32,000 bases of DNA from Alkanindiges illinoisensis DSM 15370 (GTDB taxonomy: Bacteria; Pseudomonadota; Gammaproteobacteria; Pseudomonadales; Moraxellaceae): the NCBI RefSeq assembly GCF_000619845.1, contig NZ_JHUX01000003.1, forward strand, positions 60,001 through 92,000. Direction: 5' to 3'. Shown here piece after piece: positions 14,721 to 26,724 of this stretch (its first letter is position 1; each line of letters starts with the position of its first letter). A program made the position numbers and the translations under genes. The notes under the pieces are model-generated. The model saw only the letters and a list, made by a program, of their open reading frames with translations. It made no database searches and was not told the origin of the DNA.

Positions 14721-14918
14721 GTGAATTTTACGTTAAATCACATCTTGGCAGACAGAAATTTTTTTGTAAGCCCATACTCATGCTGCCAAAACTGATATTG
14801 CCGAACTAACAGGAAGGCTGTTTTAACCAAAGCCAACAGTTTTTTGATGAAATGCGCTATAAAAAGGAAAAGCATCCCTCTAATGACGCAATATTTAATA
14901 CGCCATGAGAAAACCAGT

Positions 14919-15677
14919 ATGTTAGCTACGCCACAAATCAAGTTGTATGAAGAACTGCTTAAGAGATCATGGCAGCGACTTTGCCAGCAATTAGACCTGC
15001 CTGCTGATCAGGCCTTTGTGACACAGGTTTATCAGGAATTACTGGCGAGCTATGCTGAACCGCATCGTGCCTATCATAGTGTGCAGCATCTTGCTGAGTG
15101 CATTAGCCTGTTTGAGCAGGTTAGCCATCTGGCCGTAGAGCCTACGCTGTTAGAAATTGCCTTATGGTTTCATGATGCTATTTATAAAACCCATCCATTG
15201 CCTAAGCAGTCAACTCATAAACAGGCTAATAATGCGCAACCTAACAGTAAGCAGCTTAATAATGAGCAAATAAGCAATGAACACTTAAGTAACGAGCAAA
15301 AAAGTGCAAATTGGGCAGCGCAATTCCTGAAGCGTTGCAAAGTTAACCCAATAATCATTCAACAAGTGAACCAGCTGATCATGGCAACCCAGCATCATCA
15401 GGCCAGCAATAATGAGGACAAACTGATGGTGGATATTGACCTCGCCATCTTAGGCGCTATGCCTGCACGCTTTGCCGAATATCAGCAGCAAATCAGGGAA
15501 GAATATGATTTTGTGGCACTAGCACTATTCAATATCAAGCGCAGGGAAGTGCTGGCTGGGTTTTATCAGCGACCACGCATTTATCAGACAGATTATTTTT
15601 ACAGCCGCTATGAAAAGCAAGCGCGTGAAAATTTGCAGGCAGCACTAGCAAATGATAATAAGGACTTTACAGGCTAA
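14919..15677 (+). CDS. HD-superfamily metal-dependent phosphohydrolase-like protein (COG4339-like)
   Basis: HRAYHSVQHL...LWFHDAIY matches the H...HD motif. The likely start is the ATG at 14919 (MLATPQIKLYEELL). An N/Q/S-rich insertion follows the HD motif. Confidence 0.7.
   Translation: MLATPQIKLYEELLKRSWQRLCQQLDLPADQAFVTQVYQELLASYAEPHRAYHSVQHLAECISLFEQVSHLAVEPTLLEIALWFHDAIYKTHPLPKQSTHKQANNAQPNSKQLNNEQISNEHLSNEQKSANWAAQFLKRCKVNPIIIQQVNQLIMATQHHQASNNEDKLMVDIDLAILGAMPARFAEYQQQIREEYDFVALALFNIKRREVLAGFYQRPRIYQTDYFYSRYEKQARENLQAALANDNKDFTG
15255..15299 (+). repeat. In-frame 15-bp tandem repeat x3 encoding [L/I]-[N/S]-N-E-[Q/H]
   Basis: cttaataatgagcaa / ataagcaatgaacac / ttaagtaacgagcaa encode LNNEQ-ISNEH-LSNEQ inside the HD-family CDS. 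Confidence 0.7.
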
Positions 15678-15704
15678 CATTCATAATTTGTATGGGTTCA
15701 GGCA

Positions 15705-15866
15705 TAAAAAAGCCCGACAATATTCATCCTGAATGGTCGGGCATTCCTTTAGCATCCTGCTGTACATCCTGTTCTCGATACATCCCATCGAGCCTTGCGA
15801 TTGTTGCCAACCTTTCAGCTAGCGCTATCCTTATGGCTAATCCGTGCCATGTCATCCTTGATTCGC
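15705..15866 (-). ncRNA. Candidate Csr/Rsm-family CsrA(RsmA)-sequestering sRNA
   Basis: The minus strand carries 8 GGA motifs in about 135 nt. Three are CAGGATG (15725-31, 15753-59, 15765-71) and one is AAGGATG (15853-59). GGA motifs fall in the loops of predicted hairpins at 15774-15792, 15833-15850 and 15751-15761, and in the terminator loop. A strong terminator sits at the 3' end and a GacA box upstream. The 5' end is approximate. Confidence 0.6.
15706..15742 (-). terminator. Rho-independent terminator of the candidate sRNA
   Basis: Stem GCCCGAC (15712-15718) / GTCGGGC (15736-15742) with inner pairing ATTCA/TGAAT. On the minus strand it is followed by UUUUUU (15706-15711). Confidence 0.8.
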
Positions 15867-15922
15867 TAAACACATCATCTCGCATTTGACCCCGCCAAAA
15901 CAGACGCCACAACCCCAATTGA

Positions 15923-15940
15923 TGTACGCCAATGCTTACA
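15923..15940 (-). promoter_or_regulatory. GacA/UvrY-box-like upstream activating sequence
   Basis: The minus strand reads TGTAAG-CATTGG-CGTACA. The Pseudomonas consensus is TGTAAG-N6-CTTACA, so this is 11/12 of the specified positions. Its centre is about 75 nt upstream of the first GGA motif. Confidence 0.5.
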
Positions 15941-16072
15941 AAAGTTAACATACCCTTGAGTGGTTAACGTCTCGACTGACATAAAATAAAGTTCAAAGAT
16001 GTATTAGGCAGGATTGTTGTACAATAACCCTGTAGTATCGTTAAATGGATTTGTAGGATTAGCTTAACAATA

Positions 16073-16897
16073 ATGAAAATTCATCATTTAAATTGCGGAA
16101 CTTTTTGCCCCAGTTGTCAACGGTTACTCGAAGGCAAGGGAAGCTGGCTGCAACCTGCCACTATGTGCTGCCATTGTCTGGCCATTGAAACCAGTGAGGG
16201 CCTAATTCTGGTGGATACAGGGCTTGGGGTACAGGATGTACTAACACCAAAGCATCTAGGGCATACGTTCAGGAACCTGATGCGACCAAAACTGGAGCTG
16301 GAAGAAACAGCGCTGTTTCAACTGGATCAGATGGGCTTTAATCGCCGTGAGGTGCGACATATTGTGCTCACGCATCTGGATCTGGATCATGCAGGTGGCA
16401 TTGCTGATTTTCCGGCAGCAAAAATTCATGCGTGTAGTACCGAAATTGAAGCCGCGCTACGGCCACACTGGCGTGACAAGCTGCGCTACCGGGCCAAGCA
16501 GTTTGAGTTTAATCCCAAATGGGCAGCGACAATTAATACCACGGATACCTGGTTTGGCTTTGAAAATATTCAGCGGCTAAAAGGTATTAAGGAAGAAATT
16601 ATACTGGTGCCATTACATGGACATACCCGTGGTCATTGTGGTGTTGCAGTGAAACAATCCAGTGGTAAGTGGCTTTTTCATGTGGGTGACCTGTATATGG
16701 ATCGCCGCAGTTTATATGGCAAGGCTCCGGCTGCCATGAAGCAATGTGAAAATCTGTTAGCTGTGGATAATAAACAGCGACTTGGTTATGTCAAACGAGT
16801 GCGTCAATTGATTGATGAGCATAGTGATGCGGTTGAAGTGTTCTGCGCGCATGACATGAGTGAACTCAATTATTATCGTGAGCAGCAACTCGACTAA
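16073..16897 (+). CDS. MBL-fold metallo-hydrolase
   Basis: 274 aa. LTHLDLDHAGG (an HxHxDH-type metal motif) and a downstream HGHTRGH. The substrate is unknown. Confidence 0.85.
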   Translation: MKIHHLNCGTFCPSCQRLLEGKGSWLQPATMCCHCLAIETSEGLILVDTGLGVQDVLTPKHLGHTFRNLMRPKLELEETALFQLDQMGFNRREVRHIVLTHLDLDHAGGIADFPAAKIHACSTEIEAALRPHWRDKLRYRAKQFEFNPKWAATINTTDTWFGFENIQRLKGIKEEIILVPLHGHTRGHCGVAVKQSSGKWLFHVGDLYMDRRSLYGKAPAAMKQCENLLAVDNKQRLGYVKRVRQLIDEHSDAVEVFCAHDMSELNYYREQQLD

Positions 16898-22843: not shown

Positions 22844-23212
22844 ATGGCTCGTATTTTAGTAATTGATGATTCTCCAACTGAAACTTACCGGTTTCGCGAG
22901 ATTCTGCAACGTAACGGACATGAAGTGCTTGAGGCAGCTAACGGTGCTGATGGCATTAGCGTAGCACGTGCCGAATTGCCAGACTTGATCCTGATGGATG
23001 TGGTTATGCCTGGCATTAACGGCTTTCAAGCGACACGACAACTGACTCGTGGTGCGGAAACCAAGCATATCCCGATTGTTATTGTCAGTACCAAGGATCA
23101 GGAAACTGACCGGGTATGGGGAAAAAGACAGGGTGCACGTGATTACCTGACCAAACCAATTGAAGAAACTTCCCTGATAAGAGTTATTCATCAACTTCTC
23201 TCGGCAGTTTAA
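22844..23212 (+). CDS. pilH: Twitching-motility CheY-like response regulator PilH
   Basis: 122-aa receiver domain (ILVIDDS...MDVVMPGING...LTKP). Second position in the cluster. Confidence 0.9.
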   Translation: MARILVIDDSPTETYRFREILQRNGHEVLEAANGADGISVARAELPDLILMDVVMPGINGFQATRQLTRGAETKHIPIVIVSTKDQETDRVWGKRQGARDYLTKPIEETSLIRVIHQLLSAV

Positions 23213-23214
23213 TC

Positions 23215-23742
23215 ATGGCAGCCCGTGGATTTATTGAGCTTTTGCGCCTGGCCGACTATGGACGGCAACGGCAACAGGGTGGGCAGGAAAACCAGAATAC
23301 CCGCTGGTCAGGCATTGCCTTTCGATTCGCAGGCTATCAGTTTGTAGCACCACTGGGCGAGGTAGCTGAAGTTGTACCGGTTCCCGGTAGTACCACCATC
23401 CCAAGTGCAAAAAGCTGGATGCGTGGTTTAGCCAATGTGCGCGGACGTTTACTTCCCCTGACAGACCTTGCAATGTTTCTGGACTTGCCAGAAACCGAAA
23501 TTACCAGACTGAGCAAAGTGATGATTATTGATCGGCCCAACAATTATGGGGGCATTATTGTTGATCAGGTCATGGGGATCCATCACTTTAACAAGCACAG
23601 TTATTTTAGTTCAAATGCGCAGTTGCCGGATGCACTGGCGCAGTACACCAGCGGCTATTTCGAACGTCATGGACAGCAATGGCATGTTTTTTTATTTAGT
23701 AAGCTTATACAGGATCAGGCTTATTTGAATGCTTCTGCCTAA
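23215..23742 (+). CDS. pilI: CheW-like coupling protein PilI
   Basis: 175 aa. CheW-like core (…VAPLGEVAEVV…GLANVRGRLLPLTDL…). It starts 2 bp after the pilH stop. Confidence 0.85.
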   Translation: MAARGFIELLRLADYGRQRQQGGQENQNTRWSGIAFRFAGYQFVAPLGEVAEVVPVPGSTTIPSAKSWMRGLANVRGRLLPLTDLAMFLDLPETEITRLSKVMIIDRPNNYGGIIVDQVMGIHHFNKHSYFSSNAQLPDALAQYTSGYFERHGQQWHVFLFSKLIQDQAYLNASA

Positions 23743-23789
23743 TAAAAGTTTATGGGGTCGGAGAGATAAAGAATTAGGGAGTTTTGGGA

Positions 23790-25883
23790 ATGAGTTTAAA
23801 ATTGGGCGAGAAAAAGATGCCTTTTTCGTTGCGGGGTGGCAATACGGGAACACCAAAGTGGCTTAAATATATTCAAGCCTACTGGGATACCACGGCCTCT
23901 ATTTTTGGTGACCCAAAACAAGCTAAGCCTTTATTGTGGCTGGGAATGGCGGGCCTGATTGTTACGCTGATCTCCATGGTTTACCTATTTGTCAATGTAC
24001 CCAATGCCAATAACCTAACACGTGACATCGGTGAATTACGCCTGCTATCACAGCAGATTTCCCGTTATGCCACTGAAGCTGCAGTGTCTGGTAATGTCAA
24101 GGCAGCGCAGAACCTTAAAGTGTCTCAGGATGAGTTTAACGAGCGCCTGTCAGACGTGCATGATATTTATGGCACAAGCTCTGCATCTATTCAGGAAGTG
24201 GATAAGCAGTGGGGTAGCATCAATGACGGTGTCACCCTGATTTTATCGCAGCAGGAAACTGTTAACTCTCTCAATGATATTGGCACCAGTATTGCTGAAG
24301 CAATTCCTGATGTTCAGGCTGAATATAATGTCGTTGTTGATGGTCTGGTCCGGGAAAATGCACCCAATAGTCAGGTTGCACTTGCTAAAAACCAGGTTTG
24401 GCTGGCAGAGCGTATTTTACGTTCGGTAAACTCGGTATTAACGGGTGATGAAGCTTCTGTGGCGTCTGCTGATGACTTTAGTACTGACGCTGAAGATTTT
24501 GGACGTTATCTAAATGGCCAGTTGCGTGGTGATGCAGAGTTGGGGGTTGAGCGTATTACCAACGCTTCCCTGCGTAGTTCCCTGCAATCTATTCAGGAAA
24601 CCTATAACGATGTTATTCAGATCGCTGCATCCAAGGTTTTGGTGAACTCACCGAAAATTACCCAGGTGCGTAATGCGGCAGGACAGGTATTTACCCAGTC
24701 TGACAGCATGCTGAAAAAACTGGATGGACTGTCTGATAGTGTAAATGCCCGTTATAACAACTTTATTCCCGGATTTATTCTTCTGTTGTCACTGGGTCTA
24801 ATTGCTTATGCCCTGAACCGCTTGTTTAGCTTGCGTTCAAGAATTGACCTTGACCGTGCTCACAAGATTCAGGAAGAAAACGATCAGAACCAGACTGCGA
24901 TTTTACGCTTACTGGATGAGCTGGGTGACCTGGCTGAAGGTGATTTAACCACCAATGCCACTGTATCTGAAGATTTTACCGGGGCGATTGCAGACTCGAT
25001 TAACTTTGCGATTGACCAGTTACGTACGCTGGTATCGCGTATTAATTCGACGTCTGCACAGGTAGCAGACTATTCGCAGGAAACCCAGTCGATTGCCATG
25101 CAACTTGCAGATGCATCCGAACATCAGGCTCAGGAAATTGCAGGAGCTTCTGCGGCAATCAATGAAATGGCCGTATCTATTGACCAGGTATCTGCCAATG
25201 CGATGGAATCTGCGGCTGTAGCAGAACGTTCGGTAGACATTGCCTATACAGGTGCTGATGTGGTACAGCGCACCATTGAAGGTATGGATGTTATTCGTGA
25301 ACAGATTCAGGAAACGTCCAAGCGTATTAAACGTCTGGGTGAATCCTCACAGGAAATTGGTGACATTGTATCGCTGATTAACGACATTGCTGACCAAACC
25401 AACATTCTGGCATTGAACGCTGCAATTCAGGCGTCGATGGCGGGTGAGGCGGGTCGTGGTTTTGCGGTGGTAGCTGATGAAGTACAGCGCCTTGCTGAAC
25501 GTTCTGCGGCAGCAACCAAGCAGATTGAAGGCCTGGTTAAAACCATTCAAAGTGATACCAATGAAGCGGTTATTTCCATGGAACAAACCACGAGTGAGGT
25601 TGTTCGTGGTGCGCACCTAGCTAAGGACGCAGGTATTGCACTTGATCAGGTGCAAACTGTATCGCGTACATTGGCAGACTTGATTCAGAACATTTCTGAT
25701 GCAGCACGTCAGCAGGCAGCCTCAGCAGGTCATATTTCAAATACCATGAATATTATTCATGATATTACAACCCAAACCACGACAGGTACGATCAACACTG
25801 CTAAGTCGGTGGGTGATCTGGCTGAAATGGCTGTTGAGTTGCGTGCTTCTGTTTCTGACTTCAAGTTACCAGAAGATCATTAA
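23790..25883 (+). CDS. pilJ: Methyl-accepting chemotaxis protein PilJ
   Basis: Highly conserved MCP signalling hairpin [40 protein letters not shown]. Two TM segments flank a large periplasmic domain. The ATG at 23790 has GGGAG upstream; the track start at 23784 is a TTG. Confidence 0.93.
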
Positions 25884-25908
25884 GACTTGTTTGTTTGAGA
25901 GTGTCGTC

Positions 25909-26724
25909 ATGGATGAATTGGCACAAGATGGCTTTAAGTCTTTAATGGGTAATGAGCTGGCTACATTGTGGCGCTCACTGATTGAGTCGCGTATTGGCAT
26001 GGTGTTGCCAGCGCGACAGCATCAGCTGTTCGAGCAACGCATTGTTAAAAACATGGCTCAATATGCATTGGATGCAATCAGCTATTATCAACTGGTTTGC
26101 AAAGACAAGGCAGAATGGCAACGTCTGGCTGAGTCTTTAGTTGTACATGAAACCTCTTTTTTTCGTCACTCCCCCTCTTTTGAGCTGGTTGAGCAGTACC
26201 TGGTTAAAGCCAATAAAATTGTCAAACTGTGGAGTGTCGGCTGTTCCACAGGGGAAGAAGCGTGGTCGCTGGCCATGCTTGGTGATCGGTTTGCCATGTA
26301 TGGTTATGAAGTGCTAGCCACCGATATAAGTCAGCAGGTATTACTGACTGCTAAAGAAGGGGTTTATCTGGCACGCAAGGCCGAACAAATTCCAGCCCGT
26401 TTTCGTTCTAACTATGGTTCTGCGCTAGGCCAGCATTATTGGCAAATTGCAGAACATTTAAAGTCAAAAGTTTTTTTTCGGCAGTTTAACCTGATGAATG
26501 TGGTTGGATTGCCGTTTAGAAAACTGGACATTATCTACTGCCAAAACGTTTTGATTTATTTTAAGAAATTTGACCGTCGTGATATCTTGAATGCCTTGGT
26601 CAAGTGTCTGGATATTGGTGGGATACTGGTATTGGGTCCTGGTGAAGTACTTGAGTGGCGTCACCCGCAATTGAAAAAAATTGAATGGTCAGGGACGCTG
26701 GCATATGAAAAAGTTTGCATCTGA
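25909..26724 (+). CDS. pilK: CheR-like MCP methyltransferase PilK
   Basis: An ATG at 25909 gives MDELAQDGF.... CheR motifs are ETSFFRH, the SAM-binding LWSVGCSTGEEAWSLAM and CQNVLIYF. The upstream extension to 25759 in the track overlaps pilJ in another frame. Confidence 0.85.
   Translation: MDELAQDGFKSLMGNELATLWRSLIESRIGMVLPARQHQLFEQRIVKNMAQYALDAISYYQLVCKDKAEWQRLAESLVVHETSFFRHSPSFELVEQYLVKANKIVKLWSVGCSTGEEAWSLAMLGDRFAMYGYEVLATDISQQVLLTAKEGVYLARKAEQIPARFRSNYGSALGQHYWQIAEHLKSKVFFRQFNLMNVVGLPFRKLDIIYCQNVLIYFKKFDRRDILNALVKCLDIGGILVLGPGEVLEWRHPQLKKIEWSGTLAYEKVCI

Follow-up and report, generated by a model that had tools for sequence, protein, structure and literature searches.

Within a 32-kb stretch of the Alkanindiges illinoisensis genome (the window; 32,000 nt, 45.8% G+C), 395 bp separate a gene for an HD-domain protein from a gene for an MBL-fold hydrolase. 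Alkanindiges are hydrocarbon-degrading Moraxellaceae, and the full identity of both flanking proteins with NCBI proteins of A. illinoisensis places the window in this genus and not in Acinetobacter. Analysis of this gap indicates, with a probability that we put at about 85%, that its minus strand carries an independently transcribed gene for a non-coding small RNA of the Csr/Rsm class. In the mechanism that we propose, phosphorylated GacA, a response regulator of the BarA/UvrY-GacS/GacA type, would bind an 18-bp inverted repeat centred ~65 bp upstream of where transcription begins and activate a promoter with a weak −10 element and no −35 element. Besides a 5′/internal closing helix and a terminator, the fold of the resulting ~162-nt RNA would comprise four to five short stem-loops, and its hairpin loops or single-stranded linkers would display seven conserved GGA motifs, most of them as CA-GGA-UG. 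With two GGA sites occupied per CsrA dimer, each RNA could hold roughly three dimers, drawing CsrA off the ribosome-binding sites of its target mRNAs and relieving CsrA control, and a second, paralogous copy of the gene would give redundancy or dosage. Expression of the RNA is predicted from the sequence, as are its GacA dependence and CsrA binding, which, together with the stoichiometry, we infer by analogy. That Alkanindiges has csrA and gacA is likewise assumed, after Acinetobacter and Psychrobacter.

Conserved GGA motifs in a predicted multi-stem-loop RNA

The minus strand of the gap contains eight GGA motifs in a GGA-rich segment spanning ~15867-15729, with their first G at positions 15857, 15843, 15830, 15785, 15769, 15757, 15747, and 15729, and its GGA density is the highest on either strand of the window. 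A high density of AGGA/ARGGA (GGA) motifs at an intergenic site is one of the features by which genes of this class are recognized (PMC1488887). Exact CAGGATG heptamers, with starts at 15771, 15759, and 15731, hold three of the motifs, and a fourth lies in AAGGATG, as a preliminary description of the region had reported. That description also held that eight motifs are far above chance. Their number and their density within the window are confirmed, but eight GGA in 140 nt, taken as the scan maximum, came up in 32% of the first-order Markov simulations run on the window, and the plain count alone is not significant. In 300 such simulations, the four copies of AGGATG and the five copies of GGATG found here within 140 nt were never reached (0/300 for each), and the six copies of AGGA were reached once (1/300).

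Homologues of the element were sought in contigs that encode relatives of the two flanking proteins; 12 aligned homologues underlie the anatomy, GGA, and covariation counts given here. Seven of the eight GGA motifs occupy the same alignment column in 9 to 12 of the 12 sequences, mostly in the CA-GGA-UG context, and none of the seven is paired in the consensus fold. The earlier expectation that the GGA motifs would be conserved in related genomes is thus borne out for seven of them; the eighth, at 15747, is confined to the window.

The RNAalifold consensus and the minimum free energy (MFE) fold of the window RNA agree on the structural elements (Table 1). Seven of the eight GGA motifs are fully unpaired in the MFE fold, four or five of them in hairpin loops, in keeping with the at least four proposed earlier, and the GCCCGAC/GTCGGGC terminator followed by U6 is found at 15742-15706. 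Exposure of GGA motifs in the loops and single strands of a multi-stem-loop RNA, as this fold predicts, is another feature of the class. In the alignment behind our covariance model of the RNA (R1), 92.8% of paired cells hold standard base pairs, compared with 27–46% in slid controls. Compensatory changes at 12 base pairs, a number that none of 500 shuffles reached, lend further support to the stems, although the structure to which this alignment was fitted came from the window sequence itself, leaving the covariation counts somewhat inflated. Where the sequence varies, the GGA motifs tend to be spared: in the second copy of Alkanindiges sp. WGS2144 the stem of stem-loop 3 is wholly swapped (CCAUUUG/CAAAUGG) with the loop GGA retained. 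The segment 15751-15771 is missing from the shorter homologues.

Candidate GacA-type site and promoter

Directly upstream of the GGA cluster, at 15940-15923, lies the 18-nt palindrome that had been described as one mismatch away from the Pseudomonas GacA upstream activating sequence (UAS). The repeat, TGTAAGCATTGGCGTACA, differs from TGTAAG-N6-CTTACA at one position, and nowhere else in the window is there a match with so few mismatches; 0.09 such sites are expected by chance. Its anticipated conservation in relatives is borne out: it stands at a constant position in all 12 aligned homologues, its position and dyad symmetry are kept in 13 of 13, and in the most distant homologue, that of the metagenome-assembled genome (MAG) OH_PBrB_6, it becomes a perfect TGTAAG-N6-CTTACA (TGTAAGTTAAAGCTTACA). 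The window repeat shares 15 of 18 bases with the rsmY UAS of Pseudomonas fluorescens SS101, TGTAAGCATTCTCTTACA (PMC4353343). The candidate site therefore has the character of the conserved 18-bp GacA/UvrY inverted repeat that is found upstream of promoters of this class. Sequence conservation begins sharply at an invariant AGCG (15867) and runs to the T-run. A candidate −10 hexamer precedes it, and the 12-sequence alignment has no recognizable −35 element, which fits an activator-dependent promoter.

The repeat could bind a different regulator, or none, with the RNA acting as a CsrA sponge that is transcribed independently of GacA in the manner of P. aeruginosa RsmV and RsmW. Such RNAs are on record (PMC7911923), and the repeat often departs from the Pseudomonas consensus: most Alkanindiges copies have CGTACA instead of CTTACA as their right half-site, TGTACG-N6-CGTACG occurs in one lineage, and TGTAAT in two copies. 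We nevertheless regard GacA-independent transcription as improbable, given the retention of position and symmetry in every homologue, the perfect consensus in the most distant of them, the similarity to an experimentally GacA-dependent rsmY UAS, and a promoter whose lack of a −35 element suits a need for an activator. Equally doubtful is a structured small RNA of another action, for example an Hfq-dependent base-pairing regulator, whose GGA motifs would not be CsrA sites. In the 5′ hairpin and the terminator it is the sequence, and not just the structure, that is invariant, which could reflect base-pairing seeds or another protein partner, and Rfam Csr/Rsm models fail to match the RNA. However, seven conserved, unpaired CA-GGA-UG motifs together with a GacA-type box make up a specific CsrA-sponge signature (criteria in PMC1488887), and the variable regions change freely while the GGA motifs remain exposed. 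Because exposed, conserved CA-GGA-UG motifs are combined with a GacA-type box, both of these alternatives fit less well than a GacA-activated CsrA sponge.

Several points weigh against a GacA-activated RNA of the Csr/Rsm class. Besides the plain GGA count, the fitted alignment, and the altered half-sites, the predicted fold (MFE −45.3 kcal/mol, z = −1.9) is only modestly more stable than shuffled sequences. The Rfam covariance models that had been suggested as a check gave a negative result, and the RNA has no match to any other Rfam family: the whole window had no Csr/Rsm family match at the gathering threshold, and CsrB, CsrC, RsmX, RsmY, and PrrB_RsmZ failed to match even at E ≤ 10 in 15600-16100 and in the divergent homologues from OH_PBrB_6 and contig L021, where the searches returned only noise. 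A simple sigma-70 scan called no full promoter on the minus strand of the gap, which we attribute to the missing −35 element; the terminator was missed because of the hairpin nested in its loop. The transcription start, near 15867 at the A of AGCG and 7 nt past the −10 hexamer, is a predicted one. Finally, tblastn searches for CsrA (with the E. coli protein) and GacA in the window and the fetched loci, ~110 kb of the organism, returned nothing beyond a receiver domain of a generic kind within a CheW-MCP-CheR cluster, a negative that is uninformative at such coverage.

Genomic context, paralogous copies, and neighboring genes

Two open reading frames (ORFs), of 75 codons on the minus strand and 65 codons on the plus strand, overlap the RNA gene, and either could in principle encode a small protein. 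The 75-codon frame is open in both A. hydrocarboniclasticus copies, but indels of 1, 11–12, and 19 nt in the homologue alignment, or stop codons, destroy it in 8 of the 11 homologues checked, including the second A. illinoisensis strain. It would also begin inside the promoter region, upstream of the predicted transcription start, and conservation tracks the RNA stems and GGA motifs rather than codons. The open stretches on the opposite strand vary in frame and length among homologues. We rejected a coding function, to which we assign a negligible probability, because the frame is not conserved. The region thus appears to be non-coding and both ORFs spurious, in agreement with the earlier view that the gap holds no credible coding sequence. 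Across the RNA gene, the window (15700-15955) differs by ~5% from the GTDB representative of the species, A. illinoisensis NFYY 23406 (L011:3040-3296), and among these differences is the 1-nt indel by which the 75-codon ORF is disrupted; the window strain is therefore distinct from NFYY 23406.

The Rho-independent terminator is strong and invariant, and the genes downstream of it differ between the two loci at which the element occurs, which argues for an independent unit; together with the unconserved ORFs, this corresponds to the independent, terminator-bounded non-coding genes of the class. A cis-acting element, whether it served a downstream gene as leader or attenuator, ended transcription of the HD gene as a bidirectional terminator, or was a repetitive extragenic palindromic (REP)- or miniature inverted-repeat transposable element (MITE)-like repeat without a function in trans, is very unlikely. 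In A. illinoisensis and MAG PMG_235 the second copy precedes cysI by 140–190 nt and shares its orientation, the element occurs twice per genome at 94–97% identity, and its terminator abuts the stop codon of the HD gene. Yet the next gene downstream of the RNA in the window is on the opposite strand, and what follows the RNA depends on locus and genome: HD or an SSF symporter, each on the opposite strand, dinB, or cysI. With a conserved promoter region and a strong terminator of its own, the element persists in OH_PBrB_6 where the HD gene is missing; it occurs at only two places per genome, both of them conserved loci, and has neither terminal repeats nor target duplications. Leader and REP-element interpretations were rejected on account of the variable downstream context and the mere two fixed loci.

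The element lies between the same two genes in several relatives, in which the MBL proteins are 73–78% and the HD proteins 45–67% identical to those of the window. Model R1 recovered 13 distinct homologues at 109–192 bits, from A. illinoisensis NFYY, A. hydrocarboniclasticus, Alkanindiges sp. WGS2144, the MAGs PMG_235 and OH_PBrB_6, and several Logan contigs. All four Alkanindiges-type genomes found (NFYY, A. hydrocarboniclasticus, WGS2144, and PMG_235) contain two copies each. Copy 1 occupies the window locus, dinB-(HD)-RNA-MBL-RND, and copy 2 a locus with the order coenzyme A (CoA)-transferase III-(alpha/beta hydrolase)-RNA-(SSF symporter)-sulfite reductase. OH_PBrB_6 has a single copy, at the copy-1 locus. 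The MBL gene is the constant neighbor of copy 1 in every RNA-bearing genome; the absence of the HD gene from OH_PBrB_6, which keeps the RNA, indicates that the HD gene has no functional tie to it. A further copy-2 homologue (110.8 bits) on Logan contig L032 has one base altered in the 3′ module. A scan for the invariant form of this module (pattern CCCGACCATTCA-N-GA-N(3-10)-GTCGGG) in one genome for each of 185,579 species found Alkanindiges-type genomes and seven chance matches in unrelated phyla, with no Acinetobacter genome in the collection among the hits. The same scan of metagenomes gave only two chance matches inside a coding region, and a distant BLAST search of a plasmid collection yielded no match.

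In the paralogue comparison, L016:6741-6903(-), L020:1829-1988(+), L023:7415-7576(+), and L021:2314-2478(+) were set against the window, L011, L015, L017, and L019. The two copies within a genome are 94% (A. illinoisensis) and 97% (A. hydrocarboniclasticus) identical, promoter included, compared with 88% for copy-1 orthologues between these two species. This greater likeness of intragenomic copies suggests gene conversion. The two copies of WGS2144 are just 56% alike. The 5′ hairpin (AUGGC...GCCAU) and the CAGGAUG-bearing terminator are sequence-invariant across lineages whose flanking proteins are 50–75% identical. Taken with the identity of the copies, this invariance leaves some room for the tentative idea, unlikely on balance, that the RNA is more than a passive sponge, either through a second sequence-specific partner or through CsrA binding coupled to termination or turnover, with gene conversion maintaining the pair. 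Candidates for such a partner would be a further protein that binds RNA, a CsrD-type RNase adaptor, or a target engaged by base pairing.

Some related loci lack the RNA or carry other features of their own. In a related MAG whose MBL protein is 72% identical (L004, 2695-3001), dinB adjoins the MBL gene directly; neither the HD gene nor the RNA is present, and R1 finds nothing at the locus, a state that could be either a lineage-specific loss or ancestral. A JGI relative (L033) has no RNA at its cysI locus. Logan contig L031, which carries a near-identical A. illinoisensis cysI, starts (1-28) exactly within the RNA terminator (TTCAGGATGAATATTGTCGGGCTTTTTT), which looks like an assembly break caused by two near-identical RNA copies. 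The region upstream of cysI that A. baumannii and Alkanindiges have in common (L029:4830-5005, L031:100-222) contains TTATCAATAAAACCGTTAT...TTTTATTGATGAA, with an inverted repeat, and is probably a regulatory site of cysI unrelated to the RNA.

The neighboring genes have features of their own. The HD-domain protein (14844-15677, +) contains a Q/N/S-rich low-complexity insert (…KQANNAQPNSKQLNNEQISNEHLSNEQKS…), its orthologues range from 217 to 296 aa, and it matches no Pfam or NCBIfam model despite its NCBI name. The MBL-fold protein weakly resembles the AiiA, AttM, and AidB models for lactonases that act on AHLs (N-acyl homoserine lactones), with scores of 43–66 bits against cut-offs of 360–390, which are too low to call it a quorum-quenching lactonase. 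On the minus strand, TTATTTTATGTCAG at 15976-15989 contains the motif TTTTATGTNAG ~35 nt upstream of the box; this motif is kept in copy-1 loci only and may be part of the divergent, plus-strand promoter of the MBL gene. Further along the window, at 22844-26724 (+), genes for a receiver domain, CheW, a methyl-accepting chemotaxis protein (MCP), and CheR form a Pil-Chp-like chemosensory cluster in which a 699-aa and a 321-aa ORF overlap by ~125 nt, so that one start codon has probably been placed too early.

Table 1 Coordinates of the predicted RNA gene, its candidate control elements, and neighboring reading frames in the window
Feature	Position	Strand	Remarks
HD-domain protein gene	14844..15677	+	Convergent with RNA gene; 100% identity to NCBI 'HD domain-containing protein [Alkanindiges illinoisensis]'
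MBL-fold hydrolase gene	16073..16897	+	Divergent from RNA promoter; Pfam Lactamase_B; 100% identity to A. illinoisensis protein
75-codon ORF	15724..15951	-	Overlaps RNA gene; judged spurious; frameshift or stops in 8/11 homologues
65-codon antisense ORF	15692..15889	+	Judged spurious
18-bp inverted repeat TGTAAGCATTGGCGTACA	15923..15940	-	Candidate GacA/UvrY-type site; centre ~64.5 bp upstream of predicted start
Candidate −10 hexamer GATGAT	15874..15879	-	CATTAT or GATTAT in distant homologues; A and T positions invariant in alignment
Predicted small RNA, ~162 nt	15706..15867	-	5′ end inferred; 3′ end is the U-run
Closing helix, AGCG/CGCU-type	5′/internal	-	Predicted by RNAalifold and MFE
Mini-hairpin UCA-AGGA-UGA	15852..15861	-	GGA site 1 at 15855-15857, in 12/12; helix 2, paired in 83% of cells
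Stem-loop 1, AUGGC/GCCAU	15833..15850	-	GGA site 2 in loop (15841-15843), in 11/12; stem paired in 100% of cells
GGA site 3	15828-15830	-	Single-stranded, after stem-loop 1; in 12/12
Stem-loop 2, variable spacer	15806..15823	-	No conserved GGA; compensatory changes in 5/7 pairs; deleted in WGS2144 copy 1
Stem-loop 3, CUCGAUG/UAUCGAG	15774..15792	-	GGA site 4 in loop (15783-15785), in 11/12; three compensatory pairs
ACAGGAUGU and mini-hairpin GCAGGAUGC	15751..15771	-	GGA site 5 (15767-15769) in 9/12; GGA site 6 (15755-15757) in 10/12; both unpaired
Eighth GGA (AAAGGAAUG)	15745..15747	-	Incidental; in 1/12 (window only); pairs with U-tail in fold
Intrinsic terminator GCCCGACCATTCAGGATGAATATTGTCGGGCTTTTTT	15706..15742	-	Outer stem GCCCGAC/GUCGGGC (7 bp, GC-rich), then U6; nearly invariant in homologues
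Terminator inner stem AUUCA/UGAAU	15727-15729 (GGA site 7)	-	GGA site 7 in loop, CAGGAUG; in 10/12; UGA in two Logan sequences

Relationship to known Csr/Rsm systems

The earlier expectation that the RNA would be a family member and not a new class holds for its predicted function and fails for its sequence: it appears to be a new sequence family, outside the Csr/Rsm families of Rfam, within a known functional class, with the Acinetobacter small RNAs compared only indirectly. A literature search found no paper linking Alkanindiges to CsrA, GacA, or small RNAs, and the gene would add the missing RNA component of a Gac-Csr cascade for this genus. Protein-centered annotation would overlook such a gene or mask it with a spurious ORF. 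The 13-member alignment and covariance model could seed a new Rfam family, and the RNA would provide a second, sequence-distinct set of CsrA sponges within the Moraxellaceae for comparison with CsrB, CsrC, and CsrD of A. baumannii. Understanding of the system itself would be unchanged, as a specialist would expect such RNAs wherever a gammaproteobacterium has GacA and CsrA.

The closest systems by host are those of the Moraxellaceae. Relatives in this family have CsrA, GacA, and CsrA-binding sponge RNAs (PMC13643297, PMC13516227, PMC12455638), and in A. baylyi a gacA phenotype requires csrA (PMC12455638). A. baumannii is reported to have three sponge RNAs, and its CsrB co-precipitates with CsrA (PMC13643297, PMC13516227). 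A. baumannii CsrB, CsrC, and CsrD (Singh et al, mBio 2025, e04058-24; cited in PMC13516227 and PMC13643297) share with the Alkanindiges RNA the bacterial family, the proposed sponge function, and the presence of several copies per genome, as do rsmX, rsmY, and rsmZ, which Kulkarni et al (2006, PMC1488887) predicted for Acinetobacter sp. ADP1 and Psychrobacter arcticum. Neither copy-1 flank had an Acinetobacter-labelled protein in its 120 best matches, and the A. baumannii CoA-transferase...cysI site, which is syntenic with copy 2, has no such RNA, with OprB and a pyrroloquinoline quinone (PQQ) dehydrogenase in the space. The genes at ADP1 rsmX are oriented as at the window locus (-> <- ->).

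The RsmX, RsmY, and RsmZ RNAs of Pseudomonas are of a similar size class: those of strain SS101 are 118–133 nt long with eight GGA motifs (PMC4353343), compared with ~162 nt and seven conserved GGA motifs here. They resemble the Alkanindiges RNA in presenting GGA motifs in hairpin loops and linkers, in ending at a Rho-independent terminator, in occurring as several paralogues per genome, and in having an 18-bp site of the TGTAAG-N6-CTTACA type near the promoter, and GacA-box-dependent rsmX, rsmY, and rsmZ are known (PMC7911923, PMC4353343). The Alkanindiges RNA differs from them in its usual half-site, CGTACA, in the GGA motif inside its terminator hairpin, and in its Moraxellaceae host. Paralogous pairs such as CsrB1/B2 and RsmX-1/X-2 are typical of the class (PMC1488887, PMC7911923), and the two copies per Alkanindiges genome are consistent with this habit. 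E. coli CsrB and CsrC and CsrB1–B4 of the Vibrionaceae similarly sequester CsrA through multiple GGA motifs and include near-identical paralogues. V. fischeri CsrB1 and CsrB2, which are 88% identical and carry 21 CsrA-binding motifs (PMC1488887), are much longer, at 416–420 nt. RNAs of this group are activated by UvrY/VarA, the orthologue of GacA, by way of an inverted repeat of 18 nt, to which UvrY binding has been shown by footprinting (PMC4682653). In E. coli this repeat lies ~180 bp upstream of the start (PMC4682653), whereas the candidate repeat in Alkanindiges lies only ~65 bp upstream of the predicted one.

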